From a virus (lineage: Duplodnaviria > Caudoviricetes), in the IMG/VR virus record IMGVR_UViG_3300033149_001838, positions 1 through 53,092 of that record: DNA of 53,092 nt; one strand, given 5' to 3'. Below, piece after piece: positions 1 through 51,409 of this stretch; the stretch's first letter is position 1; every line of letters starts with the position of its first letter. Below the pieces are notes generated by a model that was given only the letters and a program-made list of their open reading frames with translations, was not told the origin of the DNA and did not search any database. The translations under genes and the position numbers were made by a program.

Positions 1-243
1 AATCTTTAGTATGTCACTATCTAAGAATCTAATATCATGATCTAAAAATAACCAATATCTTTTACTTGTATTTTTAAACTTTTCACATAATTTATTGAAG
101 TTCTTATTTATGGGAAGATCATCATATTGTAATATGAACATGATATCAGGTAGATACTTCTTGGCAGATAATAATAAATCAGGATAATAAGCATCAGTGT
201 GTGTAAACGTACCCATTACTAGATTTTTTTCTAATATATTCAT
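1..243 (-). CDS. GT-A fold (GT2-like) glycosyltransferase, partial (runs off the window start)
   Basis: Not in ORF track. Manual translation from ATG 243: MNILEKNLVMGTFTHTDAYYPDLLLSAKKYLP...KRYWLFLDHDIRFLDSD, with a hydrophobic strand plus DxD motif. ATG overlaps the TGA of the upstream HNH gene (ATGA). Confidence 0.65.
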   Translation of the reverse strand, partial: MNILEKNLVMGTFTHTDAYYPDLLLSAKKYLPDIMFILQYDDLPINKNFNKLCEKFKNTSKRYWLFLDHDIRFLDSDILKI

Positions 244-1658
244 AATTTTTCTCTCAACTCTGAAAGTTTACAGCCATTCTGAGTATGTACTTTCTTGTGG
301 CACTTATCGCATAAAGTCACACCGTTATCAATATCAAGGGACTGAACAGGATCACAAACAATAGGATCAATGTGATGAGCTACTAAGTTATCAGTAGACC
401 CACATATCTGACAAGTATAGTTGTCTCTTGACTTAACTAAATTAGCCCACTCTTTTTGGTGGGGTCTCTTGTAATCTTTGAAGCCTTTGGGATATTTATT
501 CTGCCTATAAACGGGACAGGCTTGCTTACATTTATCTGAACAATAGAATCTATATCCACCATTGGAATTGATAGCATTTCGTCTATTCATAACATCAGAT
601 CTTTTGGGTCTGAACCATTTCTGACAGTTGGAACATCTTACTTGGAGGTAATCTTGATTGTCGGGATCTTTTCTAGTCTCTTCCACAGGCTCCAACTGAT
701 GAGCATAAGTGTCATAGAGAGGTATATTTAGTTTTGAGACTCCACCTTTCCATGTATGAATAGTGCAAATTCTACACCTATGTCCAGATTTAAAGTTTGT
801 AAATGATGTTTTATATCTATGCCCAAATGTGCATTCCAAAAGTAACTTTGTGTTACTATTTTTATGTTCTATTTCATCAGATAAAAGTTTATAGCCATAA
901 CTCTCTATATATTTTTTGGCTCTCAGAAAGTCCTGTTTTTGTCTAATCTCTTTTTTACATATTGGGCATTTTTTATCACTTCTACGAAAACTAGCAAAAT
1001 TCAATTCAAATATGTGATTGTGCTTGCATTTTAGAGTAATCTTGTCATTTTTATGAATTTCACTTTTATTCAACACCTCAAAACCAAATGAATTTATATA
1101 TTTAACAATGTGATCATATGACTTTAACCTTCTACTGCATTCTGGACATTTGTATCCTCTTCTAAGTTCACTAGTAGTTAAAGTAAAAATATGGTTTTTT
1201 GAGCAGCATATAGTATATTTATTTTTATGCTTTGAAATTAATTTATATCCTAATTCTTGTATAATTATTTCAATGCTTATTGGAGGACAGATAGGACATC
1301 TGTTTCCTCTTTTAAAACTATGCAAACTCTGATAAAATTCATGATCATTTTTACATTGTATTAATAACTTGTCATGTGCTCCAGTATATTCTGTAGAAAT
1401 AAGTTGGTAGCCTTTAGATTCTATATATTCTTTTACTTCTTCATATACTAATAACTTACGTTCTCTTGCTAGTTTATTATTACAAATTGCACATCTGCGC
1501 CCCAAACTGAATTTATTATAATTTATTGCTATCTTATGTCCATTTGGGCATGTCAGGACTAACTTCTGTTTATTATCTTTATAACTTCTACTTAATAATT
1601 TATAACCCTCTTTCTCAATTACAGACTTTACATAATCATAAGTGAGTTTTCTGGGTAT
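240..1658 (-). CDS. Zn-ribbon repeat HNH endonuclease (5 repeats)
   Basis: Five GYxLLS...C-x2-G/N/DH...CxxC repeats; C-terminal RDNYTCQICGS...AHHIDP...NGVTLCDKCH HNH motif. ORF track start 1712 lies inside the leader structure; the RBS-aligned codon is ATA at 1658. Confidence 0.88.
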   Translation of the reverse strand: MPRKLTYDYVKSVIEKEGYKLLSRSYKDNKQKLVLTCPNGHKIAINYNKFSLGRRCAICNNKLARERKLLVYEEVKEYIESKGYQLISTEYTGAHDKLLIQCKNDHEFYQSLHSFKRGNRCPICPPISIEIIIQELGYKLISKHKNKYTICCSKNHIFTLTTSELRRGYKCPECSRRLKSYDHIVKYINSFGFEVLNKSEIHKNDKITLKCKHNHIFELNFASFRRSDKKCPICKKEIRQKQDFLRAKKYIESYGYKLLSDEIEHKNSNTKLLLECTFGHRYKTSFTNFKSGHRCRICTIHTWKGGVSKLNIPLYDTYAHQLEPVEETRKDPDNQDYLQVRCSNCQKWFRPKRSDVMNRRNAINSNGGYRFYCSDKCKQACPVYRQNKYPKGFKDYKRPHQKEWANLVKSRDNYTCQICGSTDNLVAHHIDPIVCDPVQSLDIDNGVTLCDKCHKKVHTQNGCKLSELREKL

Positions 1659-1665
1659 AGTATTA

Positions 1666-1738
1666 CCTCCTGCATAAGATATTTGGGGCTGAAGGTGATG
1701 CAGCACCTTCATTCAGAGATGATCAGTCTCTTACCCCA
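1666..1738 (-). ncRNA. Structured 5' leader, copy A (three-way junction with RBS pseudoknot)
   Basis: Minus strand: TGGGGT-A-AGAGA CTGATCA TCTCT-GAA-TGAAGGTG CTGCAT CACCTTCA-GCCCCA-AATATCTT-ATGCAG-GAGG. Confidence 0.75.
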
Positions 1739-1749
1739 CAATTTAGTAT

Positions 1750-1778
1750 ATTATACCATACTTTGGCTAAAATGTCAA
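1750..1778 (-). promoter_or_regulatory. Consensus sigma70 promoter (repeat copy 1)
   Basis: TTGACA-17 nt-TATAAT with TG extended -10; 1767-1813 is identical to 36916-36962. Confidence 0.9.
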
Positions 1779-1870
1779 GTAAAAAATGATATTAATTGAA
1801 AATAATTTAACTAGACTTCTAGCAAGATGAGACAGACATTTACAAATTAAAAATCTCTAATAATATCAGG

Positions 1871-32316: not shown

Positions 32317-33864
32317 TCACCCCTTTAAATTATTATTGGTAACATTCCACACCCAAACTGTGTTACCACAATCAAATATTCTTGTAAAATTGTTGTCATA
32401 CATATTTTGTACTTCAGTTTTGTCGGCATCAAAAAATTCCAATTTCTTCTTTAAAACAGACTTACGAAAATTATATCGGTGTAATCTATTATTATCCACA
32501 ATATACCAATAATTAGGATTACTATTATGAGACTTTCTAAAACCTAACTTGGTATAGAATGCATCTCCCGACCATCTTCTATCAGAATAAGTTATAATGT
32601 TATCTGGCCTCCAATTTCTAACAAAGTACATAAATAACTTAGAAGCAATACCAGGAATAATATAATCTGAGTGAGAGACAAATCTATTTAACTCCCACTC
32701 ATGCTTACTCTTACGGCTCAAATTGGGTTTACCAAAAGTCATTACGGATACTAACTTATCCTCATAGAAGGCTCCTAATTTTATACTTGCAGAATCTTTA
32801 CCTTGTATGTGATGTTGATCTAAGAATTCATTTTTAATTTTAGCAGGAATCTCACAGATCTTACATTTTCTAGCATGGATTCTTTCGGCATCAGATATAC
32901 CTAATTTATAAAATAATCTGGATAAAACTATGGAACTCTTATTATACCATTCATCTTCAAAGATGGTAATTAAGTTATATCCTGCTTTGTTGCACTGTTC
33001 CAATTTATCCAAATGATAATATTTATTCTTCCCTTGAGCTTCACTATGCCAGAATAAGCCACAATACTCTATTGCTGTCTTCTTAGAGGGAATAACTATG
33101 TCAAGTTCTAACGGCCCAATTAATTCTCTGTCACCTGATATAGCATCTGGGAAATGTTCCTGTATTATGCCAAATATTTCTAATTCAGCTCTAGATTTGT
33201 GATGAGAACAATAGGGACATCTGTGTCCCTGCTGAAATGAATTCCATTTAATTTGATACTCATGTCCATTTTCACATTCCACCAATAGTTTAGTTTTGTT
33301 ATTTTTATATTCTGTAGAAATAAGTTTAGTATTACTTTCTTTAAACGCAGCTAATATGGTTTCCAATGTCTGTCTCTTATTAATAGCATTTTCTTTATAA
33401 CTACATAAAAGACACCTACTACCTCTCTGCCAGCTAGACCACGTAATGTAATACTTATGTCCATTAGGACATATGAAGTCTAGTTTCTGCATCCTATGTT
33501 TATACTCTGTAGTTAAAAGAGTATAACCTTCATCTGAAAAAGACTTCTTAATTAAATCAAGATTAAGTCTGGTTTTCTTCTGTGTATCAGATTTATGGTG
33601 CTTATCGGCTAACTCTTTAACTTTCATAGGATTATCAGCACCATATTTTTTAACACAAGTAGCCTTACGCTTCTCTATAACATTATCCCGTTTAATAGTA
33701 CATTTTCTACAATATTGTTTTTCTATCCTGTTCTTACGTTTAAGAGCATACCAGGAAGTTTGCTGTTCACTCCCACAATCATCACACTTATAGATAATCC
33801 TTACATTCCCAACTAAATTATCAATTGCAATCTCTTTCCCGTTCTTAAAAGCTTTTACTATCAT
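32317..33864 (-). CDS. Zn-ribbon repeat, Hef-like (Vsr/PD-(D/E)XK-type) homing endonuclease
   Basis: Two Zn-ribbon repeats; ELDIVIPSKKTAIEYCGLFWHS, IFEDEW, ARKC, ELNRF, YSDRRWS, RIFDCG. Start moved to ATG 33864 behind AGGAGG because the ORF-track extension runs through the leader. Confidence 0.82.
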   Translation of the reverse strand: MIVKAFKNGKEIAIDNLVGNVRIIYKCDDCGSEQQTSWYALKRKNRIEKQYCRKCTIKRDNVIEKRKATCVKKYGADNPMKVKELADKHHKSDTQKKTRLNLDLIKKSFSDEGYTLLTTEYKHRMQKLDFICPNGHKYYITWSSWQRGSRCLLCSYKENAINKRQTLETILAAFKESNTKLISTEYKNNKTKLLVECENGHEYQIKWNSFQQGHRCPYCSHHKSRAELEIFGIIQEHFPDAISGDRELIGPLELDIVIPSKKTAIEYCGLFWHSEAQGKNKYYHLDKLEQCNKAGYNLITIFEDEWYNKSSIVLSRLFYKLGISDAERIHARKCKICEIPAKIKNEFLDQHHIQGKDSASIKLGAFYEDKLVSVMTFGKPNLSRKSKHEWELNRFVSHSDYIIPGIASKLFMYFVRNWRPDNIITYSDRRWSGDAFYTKLGFRKSHNSNPNYWYIVDNNRLHRYNFRKSVLKKKLEFFDADKTEVQNMYDNNFTRIFDCGNTVWVWNVTNNNLKG

Positions 33865-33872
33865 GGTCTTTA

Positions 33873-33943
33873 CCCTCCTATCAGGATTAAGTGGTGGGGG
33901 TGGATAGGCACCCCCTACAGAGTTGGCCGAACTCTTACCACTT
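33873..33943 (-). ncRNA. Structured 5' leader, copy B
   Basis: AAGTGGT-A-AGAGT TCGGCCA ACTCT-GTA-GGGGGTG CCTATC CACCCCC-ACCACTT-AATCCT-GATAGG-AGGG. Confidence 0.8.
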
Positions 33944-33957
33944 TCATTTATGCCTAT

Positions 33958-35758: not shown

Positions 35759-35783
35759 CTAGACTTTTGGCAGGGTGGAACAA
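35759..35783. repeat. ~25-bp dispersed junction motif (CTAGACTTTTGGCAGGGTGGAACA)
   Basis: Related copies at 1811-1836, 34029-34054, 36960-36984 and, inverted, 36986-37006 and 46012-46034. Confidence 0.65.
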
Positions 35784-36808
35784 CCCCTGTGAATTTTTTT
35801 GTGACATTTATTGCATAAAGTTATGCCGTTATCAATATCAAGAGATTGTACAGGATCACAAATAACTGGCTCAATATGATGAGCTGTTAAATTATTCTTA
35901 CTACCACAGATCTGGCAGGTATAATTATCTCTAGATTTAACCAGGTCTGCCCATTCTTTCTGGTGAGGGCGAGAATACTCTTTGAAACCTTTGGGGTATT
36001 TAACCTGACCATAAACAGGGCAAGCTTGTTTACAAGAATCTGAACAGTAGAATCTATGTCCACCATGTTTATTTATAGCTATAATTCTACTAACTACATT
36101 TGATTTCTTTGGTGTAAACCACTTATCACAATTAGAGCATTTAACTTCTAGATAACCTTCTTCAGTTTTTCTAGTCTCCTCTACAGGATATAATTTATCA
36201 GCATAGGTGTCATATAATGGGATATTTAGTTTAGACACGCCACCCTTCCATGAGGGATGTTTATCTTCTTTTAATACTGAACAAATTGGGCATCTTTGCC
36301 CCTGCTGGAAATTATTCCACCTGATAAAGTGAACATGCCCATTTGGGCATAATAGTTTCAACTTAGTCTTCTGGCTATTAACATAATCTGATAGCAGTTT
36401 GTATCCTTGTGATTCTACATATTGTTTAACTTTCTCATATGTTATTTTATTACCAGCACAGTAGGGACATCTAGTACCAGCTACAAAACAGTCAAACCTA
36501 ACTGACCAATTATGCCCTTCACTACATTGCAGTTTTAGCTTAACTCTACTCTCATAACTTCCAGATAGCAACTTATACCCATTATACTCAATCACAGATT
36601 TTACATCTTCATAAGTATATTTTATTTTTCCAGCACAATAAGGGCATCTTTTACCTTGCTGAAAATTTCTCCACCTTGCAAAATAAACATGTCCTTTGCT
36701 ACAACATAAATGCAATTTTGTATTTGCATTTATATACTCTTTGGATAATAACTGATACCCTTCTTTTTCGATTATAGACTTGACATATTCATAGGTAAAT
36801 TTTCTCAT
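35759..36808 (-). CDS. Zn-ribbon repeat HNH endonuclease (3 repeats)
   Basis: Three repeats, HPSWKGG motif, CQICGS..AHHIEP..NGITLCNKCH. Confidence 0.9.
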   Translation of the reverse strand: MRKFTYEYVKSIIEKEGYQLLSKEYINANTKLHLCCSKGHVYFARWRNFQQGKRCPYCAGKIKYTYEDVKSVIEYNGYKLLSGSYESRVKLKLQCSEGHNWSVRFDCFVAGTRCPYCAGNKITYEKVKQYVESQGYKLLSDYVNSQKTKLKLLCPNGHVHFIRWNNFQQGQRCPICSVLKEDKHPSWKGGVSKLNIPLYDTYADKLYPVEETRKTEEGYLEVKCSNCDKWFTPKKSNVVSRIIAINKHGGHRFYCSDSCKQACPVYGQVKYPKGFKEYSRPHQKEWADLVKSRDNYTCQICGSKNNLTAHHIEPVICDPVQSLDIDNGITLCNKCHKKIHRGCSTLPKV

Positions 36809-36814
36809 AATATT

Positions 36815-36884
36815 CCTCCTACTAGGATTAAGTGGTGGGGGTGAGTAGGCACCCCCTACGAAGTTAGCTAGACTTCTACCACTT
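36815..36884 (-). ncRNA. Structured 5' leader, copy C
   Basis: AAGTGGT-A-GAAGT CTAGCTA ACTTC-GTA-GGGGGTG CCTACT CACCCCC-ACCACTT-AATCCT-AGTAGG-AGG. Confidence 0.8.
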
Positions 36885-36898
36885 TAGTTTATGTCTAT

Positions 36899-36927
36899 AT
36901 TATAACATATTTTGACTAAAATGTCAA
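36899..36927 (-). promoter_or_regulatory. Consensus sigma70 promoter (repeat copy 3)
   Basis: TTGACA-17-TATAAT with TG extension. Confidence 0.9.
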
Positions 36928-36962
36928 GTAAAAAATGATATTAATTGAAAATAATTTAACTA

Positions 36963-37006
36963 AACTCCTGGCGGGGTGAAACACATGTTCTACCCTGCCA
37001 GAAGTT
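36963..37006 (-). terminator. Long hairpin after tail tube gene (probable terminator)
   Basis: AACTTCTGGCAGGGTAGAAC-ATGT-GTTTCACCCCGCCAGGAGTT followed by T-rich sequence. Confidence 0.6.
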
Positions 37007-37097
37007 CAAGTTATACTAAATTATTTTCTGACACAAAAAATGTTATTCTTTTATGTCAAAAATGTTAAAATTACACCGATGTAACTACTTAATATCA

Positions 37098-37672: not shown

Positions 37673-38566
37673 TTAATGTGAATTAATAATCCACTTATAC
37701 TTATATATTTCAATAGGACATTTGCCTATATATTCAAAAAATGTAGATAAAGAAGAATACGGTATATTAATCGTAAACCCTTTGTATTTTTTTGCTTTTA
37801 TTCCTATAGAGATAAATTTGCTGACTAGAAAATCAACATCACCCTCCGTAAAAGAATTAGTAGCAAATGTTATAGTAGGATTCTCCTTTTTATCTTTTCT
37901 TCTATTGAGACTTCCATCTCCTAGATACCACTGTCGTACCAATACAGGAGACAGTGACAGCGTTTTGGGCACCAATTTCTTTTTATTGACGTAGAATAAG
38001 TCATAAATCTCTTTTAACTCAGGATAAGTCCTAGTAGCAAAATGATAGACCGTAGCATTACCAGTCTTTTGCACATAAATCGGCTTCCCGATAGCTTTGA
38101 TATTATATCTCTTAAAAGTATCTATCAACCAATAAAGATATTCTATATGTTTATTGCCATGCTGATAGAGTGCTGTAAATTTACTGTTACTGACTAACGT
38201 ACCGTCACCTAACAGTTCTCCATATATAAAATCCCTTATATATGAATCTAAATAACAGGTATTTCTAGTTGACAGAAAGACCTGCTCGTCTTTGTCTCTA
38301 ATCGGAATATTGTATTTATATAGCCAAGTACAGATTGTACTTCTTGCTACTGATAGAGATAGTGCTATTTCTCCAGCACTTAATTTCTCAGTTACATACT
38401 TATTTTCCAACCACTCTTTATCAGTATATTTTGGAATTTTCTTGATCTTATGTCTATATAAATAAGATATCAATGCAGCTTTAGATATACCTAATAATTT
38501 TGCTACATCTTCTCTAGATTTATTATTACAGATATACTCTTGATAAATTAGTGTATCTCTATCCAT
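37673..38566 (-). CDS. LAGLIDADG homing endonuclease with N-terminal HTH repeats
   Basis: FIYGELLGDGTL and WYLGDGSL motifs, ATNSFT. Confidence 0.88.
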   Translation of the reverse strand: MDRDTLIYQEYICNNKSREDVAKLLGISKAALISYLYRHKIKKIPKYTDKEWLENKYVTEKLSAGEIALSLSVARSTICTWLYKYNIPIRDKDEQVFLSTRNTCYLDSYIRDFIYGELLGDGTLVSNSKFTALYQHGNKHIEYLYWLIDTFKRYNIKAIGKPIYVQKTGNATVYHFATRTYPELKEIYDLFYVNKKKLVPKTLSLSPVLVRQWYLGDGSLNRRKDKKENPTITFATNSFTEGDVDFLVSKFISIGIKAKKYKGFTINIPYSSLSTFFEYIGKCPIEIYKYKWIINSH

Positions 38567-43303: not shown

Positions 43304-44836
43304 CTATTCTACCGTTCTATGAGAAGATTGTTCCTTCTCATTATCCATAGTTGTTTTGTACACATTTTTTTCTAGGTTACTATTAGGATTACCCTCACCT
43401 TCATCAAAATACTTTTTGTCTATTTTATTTAAAGGCTCCACAATTCCATCACTGTTGTCAATCTCAGTTTCAATCTCAGATCTAATGTTCTGTGGAGTGG
43501 TCGGAATCATCTTACGCACAATATTTTTCTGTAGAGTCTTATTCAAGAGAGGACTAAAATTTCTTTCCATCACAGTCATATAGTTATTCAATTCATCCTC
43601 TAAAGCTAAAATATCAAAACTAGAAGGATACTTAACTTCTTCTAGGGTCTCCGGGTCTTTATTTAGTTGCAATAATGCTAATCTAGACAAATCATTCTCA
43701 AATTTTTCATAACTTGCACTTTTATTGCTCAATGCCGCATTTACACTGGTAAATGACATCTGAGATTGCCTTCCAGACCTAGAACTGTACAAATCAGACG
43801 TTCCACCAGTTAGGTTAGCGAGCCTGAAACATTCTTTGACTAGATCCTGCACCAACTTCCATACTGTATGTATTATCTCAGAATCCGGGGATATGTACTG
43901 AGGTGGATGAGAACTCTCAGAATCAAATGTCCATACCGAGGAAGTTCCTAATTGTATCAAAGGATTACTGCCACTTTCAGCGGCCTCACTTAAACTGCCA
44001 TTATCGGGAACTACCAACTGAGAAAATGCTTGCCTGGCTATACTCTCAGAGATCAGTGAACAGAAATTCATAATCTCTCTATTAACATAAACAATATCCT
44101 TTATCAGGGACTCCCCTACTTTATTATCACCATAATTACTGCCATGATACATTGTGGCTATGGGAACTATACCAAGAGCATTCTTACCCTTAGCTGGTCT
44201 TCCATCATCAAATTGTACTAACTGCCCATCTTCATCCTGGATTTCCCAACTATCTGTAGTAATAAGCTTGTAATGAGTCTCTACCTCTCTGTCTTTTGTA
44301 GGGTCTAAATCTCTATAATACGTAGACTCAATAATAACCCACCTGAAATTACCTTCAGAATCCAGAGACCAATCTACTAATTGAGTGGGAAAAATAAGAC
44401 TTGCATAAGGATAAAGATTTAATTTTTTAGCAACTGCTTTAGATAGCCTCTTTTTGGGGGATGGCGGAACATCTACCATAGCGTGAATGACACCAAAGAC
44501 AGAGGCAAAATATCCTGCACGCTTTACAAAATCAGAGATATTTGTACCTCTATTATCTGCATTCAGGCGAAATCTTGCCAAATCAGAAGTGGGTGCTCTT
44601 TCTATATTAGACTTAAATATGTAGTTATTTAGAATAGAGGGTAGGAGGTCGCACAAGTTGAGAAAATAGGCACGACTTAATCTATCAGAAAAATCAGTGC
44701 TATCTTCCAATCTATGGGAAAATAAATTATCATCAGTGATAAAATCATCCCCACCTTTGGCAGCATCCTGATACAACTCCCATAAATTAACATTATCATC
44801 ATATAATGGATGTGACCTATCACTCAGTTTTGCCAT
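43304..44836 (-). CDS. Portal protein
   Basis: 510 aa after the terminase; HPLY...W....GG, RL.RA, LGIVP, SG..S motifs of SPP1-like portals. Confidence 0.88.
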   Translation of the reverse strand: MAKLSDRSHPLYDDNVNLWELYQDAAKGGDDFITDDNLFSHRLEDSTDFSDRLSRAYFLNLCDLLPSILNNYIFKSNIERAPTSDLARFRLNADNRGTNISDFVKRAGYFASVFGVIHAMVDVPPSPKKRLSKAVAKKLNLYPYASLIFPTQLVDWSLDSEGNFRWVIIESTYYRDLDPTKDREVETHYKLITTDSWEIQDEDGQLVQFDDGRPAKGKNALGIVPIATMYHGSNYGDNKVGESLIKDIVYVNREIMNFCSLISESIARQAFSQLVVPDNGSLSEAAESGSNPLIQLGTSSVWTFDSESSHPPQYISPDSEIIHTVWKLVQDLVKECFRLANLTGGTSDLYSSRSGRQSQMSFTSVNAALSNKSASYEKFENDLSRLALLQLNKDPETLEEVKYPSSFDILALEDELNNYMTVMERNFSPLLNKTLQKNIVRKMIPTTPQNIRSEIETEIDNSDGIVEPLNKIDKKYFDEGEGNPNSNLEKNVYKTTMDNEKEQSSHRTVE

Positions 44837-45920
44837 TCATTTCAACTCCTATTTTCCTCAAATCACTATACCTACACCCATCCTCAGAATGTACTCTTTT
44901 ATGACAATTACTACATAAAGTTATGCCATTATCAATATCAAGGGATTGTACAGGATCACATATAACAGGCTCAATATGGTGAGCTGTTAAATTATTCTTA
45001 CTACCACAGATCTGGCAGGTATGGTTATCTCTAGCTTTGACTATATTAGCCCACTCAGTCTGATGAGGTCTAGACTGATTGGGGTTCATCCCTTTGGGGT
45101 ACTTGACCTGCCCGTATACAGGACAGGCTTGTTTACATTTATCTGAACAGTAGAATCTATGCCCACCATGTGAATTTATAGCTTTAATTCTGTTACAAAC
45201 CATATCTATAGTAGGCACGAGCCATTTTTGGCAGTTACTGCATCTAACTTCTAGGTAGCCTTCTCTAGTCTTTCTAGTTTCTTCTACAGGGTGTAATCTA
45301 TCAGCATAGGTGTCGTATAGGGGAATATTTTTATTCCTAACTCCTCCCTTCCATGAGGGATGATTAGATCCAGATTTGGCACACACCGGACATCTACGTC
45401 CTTGCTGAAAGACATTAAATTTAACTCCATACTCATGTCCTTTTGGGCACTGGACTTCGAGTTTTGTATGGTTGTTCTTGTACTTCTTACTGATTAGTCG
45501 ATATCCCTGAGATTTTATATACTCCTTTACCTCAGAATAAGTTTTTCTAGCACAACCAGCACAGTGAGAACATCTAACCCCATGTCTGAAATCGCTCCAA
45601 CGAACATTATAAATATGTCCAGAAGGACATAATAATTTCAATTTAGTAGCATTGTTAATATAAGAATTAGATATTAATTGATAGCCTTGAGAATTTATAT
45701 AATCCTTAATAGTATCATAAGGCACTCTTTGTGACTGCCTCAGACAGTATGAACATCTTGTACCATAATTAAAGTTCCCAAATGTTACATACCACTTATG
45801 CCCTTCTGGACACAATAATTTTAGTTTAGTGCCCATATTAATATAAGAATTGGATAATAATTTATAACCCTCTTTCTCAATTACAGATTTAACATATTCA
45901 TAGCTCAGTCTTTTAGACAT
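44820..45920 (-). CDS. Zn-ribbon repeat HNH endonuclease (3 repeats)
   Basis: Same architecture; start placed at ATG 45920 by RBS spacing (the ORF-track GTG at 45929 lies in the RBS). Confidence 0.9.
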   Translation of the reverse strand: MSKRLSYEYVKSVIEKEGYKLLSNSYINMGTKLKLLCPEGHKWYVTFGNFNYGTRCSYCLRQSQRVPYDTIKDYINSQGYQLISNSYINNATKLKLLCPSGHIYNVRWSDFRHGVRCSHCAGCARKTYSEVKEYIKSQGYRLISKKYKNNHTKLEVQCPKGHEYGVKFNVFQQGRRCPVCAKSGSNHPSWKGGVRNKNIPLYDTYADRLHPVEETRKTREGYLEVRCSNCQKWLVPTIDMVCNRIKAINSHGGHRFYCSDKCKQACPVYGQVKYPKGMNPNQSRPHQTEWANIVKARDNHTCQICGSKNNLTAHHIEPVICDPVQSLDIDNGITLCSNCHKRVHSEDGCRYSDLRKIGVEMNGKTE

Positions 45921-45927
45921 AGTATTC

Positions 45928-45997
45928 ACCCCCTACTGGGATTAAGTGGTGGGGGTGAGTAGGCACCCCCTACGAAGATGATCAGTCTTCTACCACT
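45928..45997 (-). ncRNA. Structured 5' leader, copy D (no promoter of its own)
   Basis: AGTGGT-A-GAAGA CTGATCA TCTTC-GTA-GGGGGTG CCTACT CACCCCC-ACCACT-TAATCCC-AGTAGG-GGGTG. Confidence 0.8.
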
Positions 45998-46032
45998 AAA
46001 TTTTTTGAGTATCTGTCTCACCTTGCCAAAGA

Positions 46033-49944: not shown

Positions 49945-50901
49945 TCATCTGAAAATCCTCCTTTTAAATTTAAACCACCAATGATCTTTATACCTGTCTA
50001 TTTTCTCATTTACCTTTTTTAATTTTTTAAAATAATCATCACTTAATAAATTAATATGTTTAAGATCCCCAATAGAATATTTACTCCAACTCTCATTAGG
50101 ATACTTTCTCCAATAACAATTTCTGGACATTCTCATCTGAGGATAAAGCCAGTAACCATCTGAAAAGACACTCTTGCCTACTTTTTTAAGCCACTTAATA
50201 GACTCTTTCTCACTATGTTGCTCAACCCATTGACCACAAATGACTTTTGTATTTTTAGACTTTCTTATGGCAAACCAGATTTTCAAAAAATTATATTTAT
50301 AATACGTAAGTCCATTTACCCAGTATTTAAAAGATCTAAGTGCATTCTCTTCGGGATAAGTATACTGACCTAGCATTTGTTTATATACCGGATCTAGTTT
50401 CTTATTAATGTTATAATATAATATGGCCCTTTGTTCATTGTTAGATAATTTCTTACAAGACTTGCAGTTGCATTTAATTTTGTCATAGTCTCTAAAATAA
50501 GCCACTCTGTTATTAGACTCTAAGTTATAATCTTCAAAGTCTATAAAGATCCCGTTGCATAGATTTTTTCTGTATAATTTAACTGGATATTCCAGAACCC
50601 AGTCTATATAATTTTTATCTAACGGACAAGGAGTTTCTCTATAATATCTATTATTATAGTATAATGCCTTCCCTGGATTAGGATACCAAGGATTATACCA
50701 AGTGGGCATTAATATAACTTTAGTCTTACTGCCCTTAAAGTGCCTTAATATATCTACTATCTCTTGATAAGTCCCAAACTCAGTCTTCTGCCTCATATCA
50801 GGTCTGGGATTGTACATAGCTACTATTAGAGTGTCTATACCGGATTCTATTGCTCTGAGTATATATCCATAATCAGGCCACAAAATATACAATGCTTTCA
50901 T
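49945..50901 (-). CDS. Glycoside hydrolase-like TIM-barrel protein, putative
   Basis: GIDTLIV, PCPLD, NGIFIDFEDY, CNCKSC pattern reminiscent of GHL10/GH42-like barrels. Confidence 0.45.
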   Translation of the reverse strand: MKALYILWPDYGYILRAIESGIDTLIVAMYNPRPDMRQKTEFGTYQEIVDILRHFKGSKTKVILMPTWYNPWYPNPGKALYYNNRYYRETPCPLDKNYIDWVLEYPVKLYRKNLCNGIFIDFEDYNLESNNRVAYFRDYDKIKCNCKSCKKLSNNEQRAILYYNINKKLDPVYKQMLGQYTYPEENALRSFKYWVNGLTYYKYNFLKIWFAIRKSKNTKVICGQWVEQHSEKESIKWLKKVGKSVFSDGYWLYPQMRMSRNCYWRKYPNESWSKYSIGDLKHINLLSDDYFKKLKKVNEKIDRYKDHWWFKFKRRIFR

Positions 50902-50933
50902 AACTATTCTCCTTTCACTTTAAATATACCTAT

Positions 50934-50962
50934 ATTATACCATATTTTCACATAAATGTCAA
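50934..50962 (-). promoter_or_regulatory. Consensus sigma70 promoter (repeat copy 4, no leader structure)
   Basis: TTGACA-17-TATAAT; shares 50 identical bp with the 33.98-kb copy. Confidence 0.9.
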
Positions 50963-51409
50963 GTAAAAAATGATGTTAACTAAAAATATTCCTAAATAAT
51001 TTTTGACCTCCTGAAAATCACTCTATATCGCTCTAAATGGCCCAATTTGATTTCTGAGACCGGAAAATACCACATGTAGTAATTTCAATGAGTTAGCTTA
51101 GATTAATAAAAATCTGCCCCAGTACATTTTTAAAAATTAAGTTGCTTTGGGAATAGAGAATAATAGAGTATTTTAAAGAGAATGGGCGTAATTTGACGTG
51201 AATCGAAGAGAATGGGGGTAGATAGGGAGCTTAGGGGAAGTTCTATGTATAGTTTGTTAAGAAGAGTCTAATAGACCAATAGAAAAAAGGTTCAAAATTA
51301 GAAAAAATTCTGTGGGGGGTCTGACTGTAAAGAGACATGCTTTGCGAAGCAATTCCCCTTTTTCTTATGGCACAATTCTCAATGGGAAAGGTGCAATTTT
51401 CGTGCCACC

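Follow-up and report, generated by a model that had tools for sequence, protein, structure and literature searches.

The 5' leader of a nuclease gene in a phage contig contains a hairpin, P2, whose loop is complementary to itself, which raises the question of whether this symmetry exceeds chance and with what such a loop would pair. The window analyzed here is the entire viral record of 53,092 bases from a phage contig, estimated to be ~47% complete, and all of its genes are carried on the minus strand.

Four paralogous leaders precede homing-endonuclease genes

Using blastn and the covariance model R1, we identified four paralogous leaders of ~80 nt each in the window, all on the minus strand: A (1740..1656; R1 match 1742..1656, 81.8 bits), B (33944..33862; R1 match 33946..33862, 98.3 bits), C (36885..36806, 80 nt; R1 match 36887..36806, 96.2 bits) and D (45999..45918; R1 match 46001..45918, 98.6 bits). 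While the four copies scored 82-99 bits, the next match reached 18 bits and was the antisense of C. Across the entire window, no Rfam 15 family was found at or above its gathering threshold; the best sub-threshold match over the leader had 21.2 bits against a threshold of 50, and nothing credible was obtained at E-value thresholds. A description of such a leader was also not found in a full-text literature search. Judged by sequence comparison, the leader is an undescribed RNA family accompanying free-standing homing-endonuclease genes in a phage group.

The genes behind the leaders are all located on the minus strand and sit among structural genes (terminase, portal, major head, tail tube). 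Leader A is followed by an HNH homing endonuclease (240..1658), leader B by a homing endonuclease (32317..33864) assigned to phrog_559/phrog_3339 with CapR and DUF7487 domains, leader C by an HNH homing endonuclease of 349 aa (35759..36808; phrog_559, PF01844, PF21817) and leader D by an HNH homing endonuclease (44820..45920) between the terminase and portal genes. All four contain CapR/DUF4379 zinc-finger repeats, and the HNH domain (PF01844) is present in A, C and D. At leader A, ATA (1658..1656, minus) is found where the other copies have ATG; the 472-codon frame is open, and the single in-frame upstream ATG (1712) lies inside P3. The copy A nuclease thus has either a rare AUA start or a lost start codon. 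At least five homing-endonuclease genes are present in the 53-kb window, including a LAGLIDADG-type gene without such a leader (37673..38566, minus), ~800 bases upstream of leader C.

The leader folds into a Y, in which P1 encloses P2 (5 bp, 7-nt loop) and P3. Minimum-energy folding gives this shape for copies A, C and D (z-scores -1.9 to -2.6) and recovers the P2 hairpin in all four P2 regions, B included. In copy C, the 7-bp P1 is formed by 36884..36878 and 36836..36830 (minus) and the 7-bp P3 by 36856..36850 and 36843..36837 (minus), the latter with the loop CCTACT (36849..36844). The P3 loop is complementary to 6-7 nt extending into the Shine-Dalgarno sequence: its putative pseudoknot partner in C, AGTAGG (36823..36818, minus), overlaps the GGAGG at 36819..36815, which is spaced by six bases from the ATG (36808..36806, minus). 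Copy A pairs the loop CTGCAT with ATGCAG ahead of GGAGG, and copy B pairs CCTATC with GATAGG. Compensatory changes between A and the copies B, C and D were observed in P1, P3 and the pseudoknot (GGGGGTG/CACCCCC to GAAGGTG/CACCTTC; CCTACT/AGTAGG to CTGCAT/ATGCAG). Moreover, 6-7 contiguous complementary bases are present in all 12 leaders that were found without requiring the pseudoknot, and these have 10 different loop sequences. In the model, the pseudoknot extends no further than one or two G into GGAGG and leaves the remaining Shine-Dalgarno sequence and the AUG unpaired. By analogy with the RBS-sequestering structures of T4-type homing endonucleases, it may hold down translation of the nuclease.

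A promoter-like site of the sigma-70 type with 12/12 matches (TTGACA, 17 nt, TG-n-TATAAT; 36899..36927, minus) ends ~14 nt upstream of P1 of copy C and is the sole strong site there. It lies outside the leader fold, and a promoter starting inside the structure, as is typical of RBS-sequestering leaders, was not found at this position. The promoter block is common to A, B and C (before A at 1747..1811), while D has no such block and comes directly after the stop codon of the terminase gene. The block occurs a fifth time at 50930..50988 (minus), with no leader, ahead of a 318-aa ORF (49945..50901) for which neither Pfam nor PHROG gave a match. An imperfect G+C-rich inverted repeat at 36961..37012 (minus; CTGGCAGGG ... 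CCCGCCAG) was noted immediately upstream of the block that precedes C; the repeat has no T run and may be the end of the upstream transcript.

The P2 hairpins of all four copies are on the minus strand. P2 of C (36876..36860) has the stem GAAGT/ACTTC and the loop C-TAGCTA (36871..36865); the loops of the other copies are C-TGATCA in A (P2 1731..1715, loop 1726..1720) and D (P2 45990..45974, loop 45985..45979) and T-CGGCCA in B (P2 33935..33919, loop 33930..33924). The loops given in the original prediction, CTGATCA for A and D, CTAGCTA for C and TCGGCCA for B, match the sequence exactly. In the minimum-energy fold of B, an extra U-A pair reduces the loop to the five bases CGGCC.

Leaders of two lineages accompany related nuclease genes

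Members of the first lineage were searched for with an IUPAC pattern in which the entire P2 stem and loop were set to N. In viral contigs this gave five matches on two contigs, all of them true leaders by R1, and in metagenome contigs 12 stretches, eight of which had leaders; L029, L033, L036 and L037 were chance matches. The same pattern gave two matches in 185,579 prokaryote genomes, both by chance, and thus no prophage copy or host was found there. A nuclease-alignment search delivered 36 + 11 loci, and R1 was run on 34 of the 36, the other two being parts of a contig already covered. We also applied a structure descriptor that is blind to P2 and combines P1, P3, a P3-loop match ahead of a Shine-Dalgarno sequence and a long ORF, and the upstream regions were additionally inspected by eye. 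First-lineage leaders added by the nuclease-based search are L070, L069, L034_1760, L030_9180/L025, L023 and L019. The second lineage (L076/L077, L078, L079, L082 twice, L087 and L109) has a P1 of the AGGAG/CTCCT type, and its P1, P3 and pseudoknot sequences are unrelated to those of the window. Altogether, the survey comprises 23 distinct leaders, taken from roughly a dozen related phage contigs and belonging to two lineages whose stem sequences are unrelated, and a homing-endonuclease-like ORF is located downstream of each of the 23.

Several searches gave no further leaders. A megablast search of the terminase-portal region against GenBank phages had no match. When promoter and leader were queried together by blastn against phages, the alignments in all 25 matching records were confined to the A/T-rich promoter part and did not touch the leader. 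The exact P3/P1 pattern matched a single viral contig with a lone hairpin that is not a leader; a pattern of P3 plus Shine-Dalgarno sequence gave 31 stretches, of which the 27 new ones had no leader (best E 0.32). A regular expression for the nuclease N-terminus, which was too narrow, led to seven upstream regions with no new leader. The fold was absent from the weak covariance-model matches L081:4934, L067:3723 and L013:4339, and low-scoring matches of the structure descriptor in A/T-rich or G/C-rich loci were judged to be chance. Many related nuclease genes have no leader, e.g. those of L072, L080, L084, L094 and L095.

Identical or nearly identical leaders were found joined to different nuclease ORFs, namely L028:12015-12108 (MGKR...) and L030:11283-11366 (MYNEKC...) as well as L025 (MRKLTIEYV...) and L023 (MIIKAQKNG...), and in the latter case the P2 hairpin is the only difference between the leaders. 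Leader and ORF therefore seem to recombine as separate modules. The related nuclease gene of L088 (MKICWDNIEN...) is preceded by a different Y-shaped fold (2058-2170) with GGAGCT both in one hairpin loop and in the Shine-Dalgarno region; the two GGAGCT could pair with each other only through the palindromic AGCT.

The P2 loop is palindromic far beyond chance

The P2 hairpin is present in 22 of the 23 distinct leaders. An apex-centred, spacer-free palindrome of at least 4 nt was found in 21 of these 22 hairpins, of at least 6 nt in 16 and of at least 8 nt in three. Eight different 4-nt cores occur (AGCT 5, GATC 5, GGCC 4, CTAG 2, AATT 2, TATA 1, TGCA 1 and GTAC 1). The palindrome lies directly next to the 3' strand, and in 19/22 hairpins it is preceded by one or two unpaired 5' bases, mostly C or U. 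Counting only distinct P2 loops, the palindrome reaches 4 nt or more in 14/15 and 6 nt or more in 8/15. Length-matched random loops yielded means of 2.9 and 0.34, respectively, with maxima of 10 and 5 in 200,000 trials, and loop shuffles that keep the composition yielded means of 6.0 and 0.75 with maxima of 13 and 6; not one of 200,000 simulations reached either observed count, the version with each loop's own composition included. Most members came from a pattern or descriptor carrying no information on the P2 loop. Five leaders have a 4-nt core only, for which the chance in a single loop is 13-24%. Taken together, the P2 palindrome is real and far beyond chance. The original prediction had named a lack of palindrome enrichment in homologous loops as grounds for its rejection, and the opposite was observed: the enrichment is strong, with 14 of 15 distinct loops against a chance mean of 2.9.

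Two leaders deviate. In L023, whose nuclease gene is intact, the loop (TCATT) is not a palindrome, and L019 has no P2 hairpin and a nuclease gene split into two overlapping frames (1579-2094, 2043-2756). These exceptions indicate that the palindrome is not indispensable. The split gene of L019 fits decay, as a single case; another nuclease ORF starts directly after it, at 2762.

Palindromes may also arise as a by-product of mutation, as template switching within hairpins turns loop bases into mutual complements. Such quasi-palindrome correction would leave neutral palindromes, and entire P2 hairpins are indeed near-perfect spacer-free palindromes of up to 10 nt (L076 GATGGCCATC, G001_2934 CCTGCAGG). 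However, other hairpins should then show the same excess, and they do not. On the minus strand of the window, a perfect 5-bp stem with a 7-nt loop occurs 98 times. Four of these hairpins (expected 1.7) have a 6-nt palindrome at loop positions 2-7: leaders A, C and D and one ATATATA, i.e. 1/94 of the non-leader hairpins. Across the same loci as the leaders (314,743 bases), 36 of 746 hairpins of this geometry have a 6-nt palindrome; 22 of them are leader hairpins (either strand, overlapping loci counted), and the other 14/724 consist of A/T only. Even in the same leaders, the P3 loops reach at least 4 nt in only 4/15 cases and 6 nt in 0/15. In addition, correction should erase the unpaired 5' loop base that is kept in 19/22 hairpins, and the L069 loop TGGCCG depends on G.U pairing for its self-complementarity. 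We therefore regard a purely mutational origin as very improbable.

Covariation of the loop points to pairing between RNA molecules

Nine distinct leaders were aligned to examine self-pairing of the loop (L2:L7, L3:L6 and L4:L5): 26 of the 27 cells hold a standard pair, and two-sided changes occur at all three pairs (in 1, 5 and 4 sequences, respectively). When the partner columns were slid by 1-3, 44-56% of the cells paired, compared with 98.5% for the entire structure. Palindromic loops recur in the second lineage, in L076, L078, L079, both leaders of L082, L087 and L109.

Could the symmetry instead be that of a DNA operator, located at about +20 to +36 and recognized by a dimeric protein such as the nuclease as autorepressor or a phage regulator? 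The hairpin is located just downstream of the consensus promoter in A, B and C, and there is a precedent in I-TevI, which is reported to repress its own promoter (according to the reference list of PMC3014915). Eight cores with symmetry as the only constant do not suit a sequence-specific protein, though, and the stems differ in the second lineage, while D is without a promoter. The extra 5' base moreover breaks the symmetry on one strand, and the G.U pairs, which are also found in the P2 stems of G001_2934, L069 and L078, would be C.A mismatches on the other strand. The G.U pairs and the unpaired 5' base thus indicate that the symmetry belongs to the RNA rather than the DNA, and an operator seems highly unlikely to us.

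At the RNA level, the motif may be purely intramolecular: L2 and L7, mostly U and A, would close a tetraloop beside a bulged pyrimidine that is read by a protein or a tertiary contact, and the inner palindrome would be incidental. Consistent with this, most 7-nt loops have U at L2 and A at L7, and the L2-L7 pair is closed in the minimum-energy folds of B, L030_14 and G001_2934. This explanation, for which we see hardly any likelihood, leaves unexplained why L3 covaries with L6 and L4 with its neighbour L5 (AU 5, GC 4; also UA in TGTACA and TCTAGA), and it does not fit the 5-nt loops of the second lineage (T-AGCT), which are without the U/A frame. Ordinary pairing inside a single loop cannot be the source of the covariation, because L4 and L5 are adjacent and an L3:L6 pair would enclose only two bases. 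Two other candidates were rejected: mimicry of a tRNA anticodon arm (5-bp stem, 7-nt loop), as there is no purine at position 37 and U is not constant at position 33, and a hammerhead core, as CUGAUCA is located in the loop and not in a junction.

These data suggest selection for loop pairing between RNA molecules, in kissing or extended-duplex dimers, as the best and most economical reading of the conserved symmetry.

Candidate partners and possible consequences of the putative P2 loop pairing

For loops containing G/C, including the four of the window, nearest-neighbour energies of -5.2 to -8.9 kcal/mol were predicted for the self loop-loop duplex, compared with only -0.6 kcal/mol for the A/U-only loops TAATTA and TTATAA. 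The P2 loop would be able to pair with the same loop on a second RNA molecule, presumably in a kissing complex of 4-6 bp. An extended duplex of ~16 bp is conceivable as an alternative dimer, because the entire P2 hairpin is almost perfectly palindromic, with a single bulged base; for each of the eight cases computed, the extended P2 homodimer was predicted to be 6-15 kcal/mol more stable than two hairpins.

According to the original prediction, each leader would dimerize only with its own type, so that the paralogs would be orthogonal. This is in part borne out by the predicted energies of unlike loop pairs within the window, which are weak (+0.1 to -2.7 kcal/mol, against -5.2 to -8.9 kcal/mol for self pairs), but fails for A and D, whose loops are identical though their P2 stems differ, and for two leaders of a related phage, G001_12101 and G001_17211, which share the loop CTAATTA.

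Such shared loops raise the possibility that the partner is a different leader with the same loop (A with D, or G001_12101 with G001_17211), located either on the same long polycistronic transcript or on another one, and that the pairing organizes phage late mRNA rather than sensing concentration. The two cases of sharing agree with it, in particular the identity of the A and D loops despite different stems, and so does the missing promoter of D, which implies that D is read through from the terminase gene. On the other hand, the loops of B and C are unique in the window, the hexamers of these two loops recur nearby only in coding sequence and at no conserved distance, and a non-self partner does not require a palindrome. 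We consider this arrangement improbable.

Overall, a self-pairing P2 loop in the pseudoknotted leader RNA of homing-endonuclease cassettes is, on the basis of the compared sequences, the probable explanation. As dimer formation rises with the square of the RNA concentration, we speculate that nuclease output might depend non-linearly on the transcript level, in either direction, i.e. with more or less translation. The more far-reaching idea is that the leader would sense its own concentration without a ligand or a protein: homodimerization would alter the stability of the Shine-Dalgarno pseudoknot and tie nuclease output to transcript or genome copy number, while drift of the palindrome would insulate paralogous cassettes from each other. 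We put it forward tentatively and think it rather doubtful.

Within the account given in PMC7357161, functional natural RNA homodimers are few, and the kissing loops known among them come from retroviral genomes and eukaryotic localization signals. Support for a self-pairing loop in the phage leader comes from compensatory changes in two lineages, and as a small and easily transcribed mRNA leader it would be a tractable system for asking whether RNA self-association can tune bacterial-type translation. If true, this would add a new layer to the restraint of homing endonucleases. The leader family also marks a particular class of mobile nuclease cassettes and can thereby aid the annotation of phage genomes.

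Comparison with known systems

Palindromic kissing loops are described for the HIV-1 DIS, the oskar 3'UTR and the hatchet ribozyme (PMC7357161). By that description, the phage hairpin resembles the DIS type in three respects: 4-6 self-complementary nt in an apical hairpin loop, a hairpin able to refold into an extended duplex (here by predicted energies) and self-pairing that is kept by compensatory changes (PMC7357161). In contrast to the DIS type, the phage hairpin resides in a bacterial-type mRNA 5' leader beside a putative Shine-Dalgarno pseudoknot, and its loop has 5-8 nt with an unpaired 5' pyrimidine in place of flanking purines. Unpaired purines of the HIV-1 type were not found next to the palindrome in the P2 loops, which carry C or T, or else two bases, on its 5' side and mostly nothing on its 3' side. 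There is also no packaging or localization role for the phage leader.

A second parallel is provided by T4 I-TevI, Aeh1 mobE and T4 segB, in which a structured leader occludes the translation start of the nuclease, as reported in PMC3014915. Here as there, a structured leader precedes a selfish nuclease gene among essential phage genes, and by analogy occlusion may operate in the window too. The structures of I-TevI, mobE and segB, as presented in that source, are simple hairpins and are relieved by a late promoter inside the structure (PMC3014915). The phage leader differs by a predicted hairpin-loop pseudoknot in a three-helix fold, a promoter outside the fold and a second, self-complementary hairpin.

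The preQ1-II and SAM-II riboswitches are small folds with a loop that pairs to the Shine-Dalgarno region, and in this feature the phage leader is similar to both. Unlike them, it matches no Rfam family, has few junction bases and is found in a gene context that indicates no ligand, and its variable palindromic loop is without a counterpart there. The guanidine-II riboswitch (mini-ykkC) comes closer with respect to the loops, as its hairpin loops kiss through a self-complementary CG step (listed in a table of PMC7357161). As far as that table describes it, the guanidine-II loop ACGR is fixed and ligand-binding, and both hairpins are part of one RNA, whereas in the P2 loop of the phage leader the sequence is free and only the symmetry is kept.
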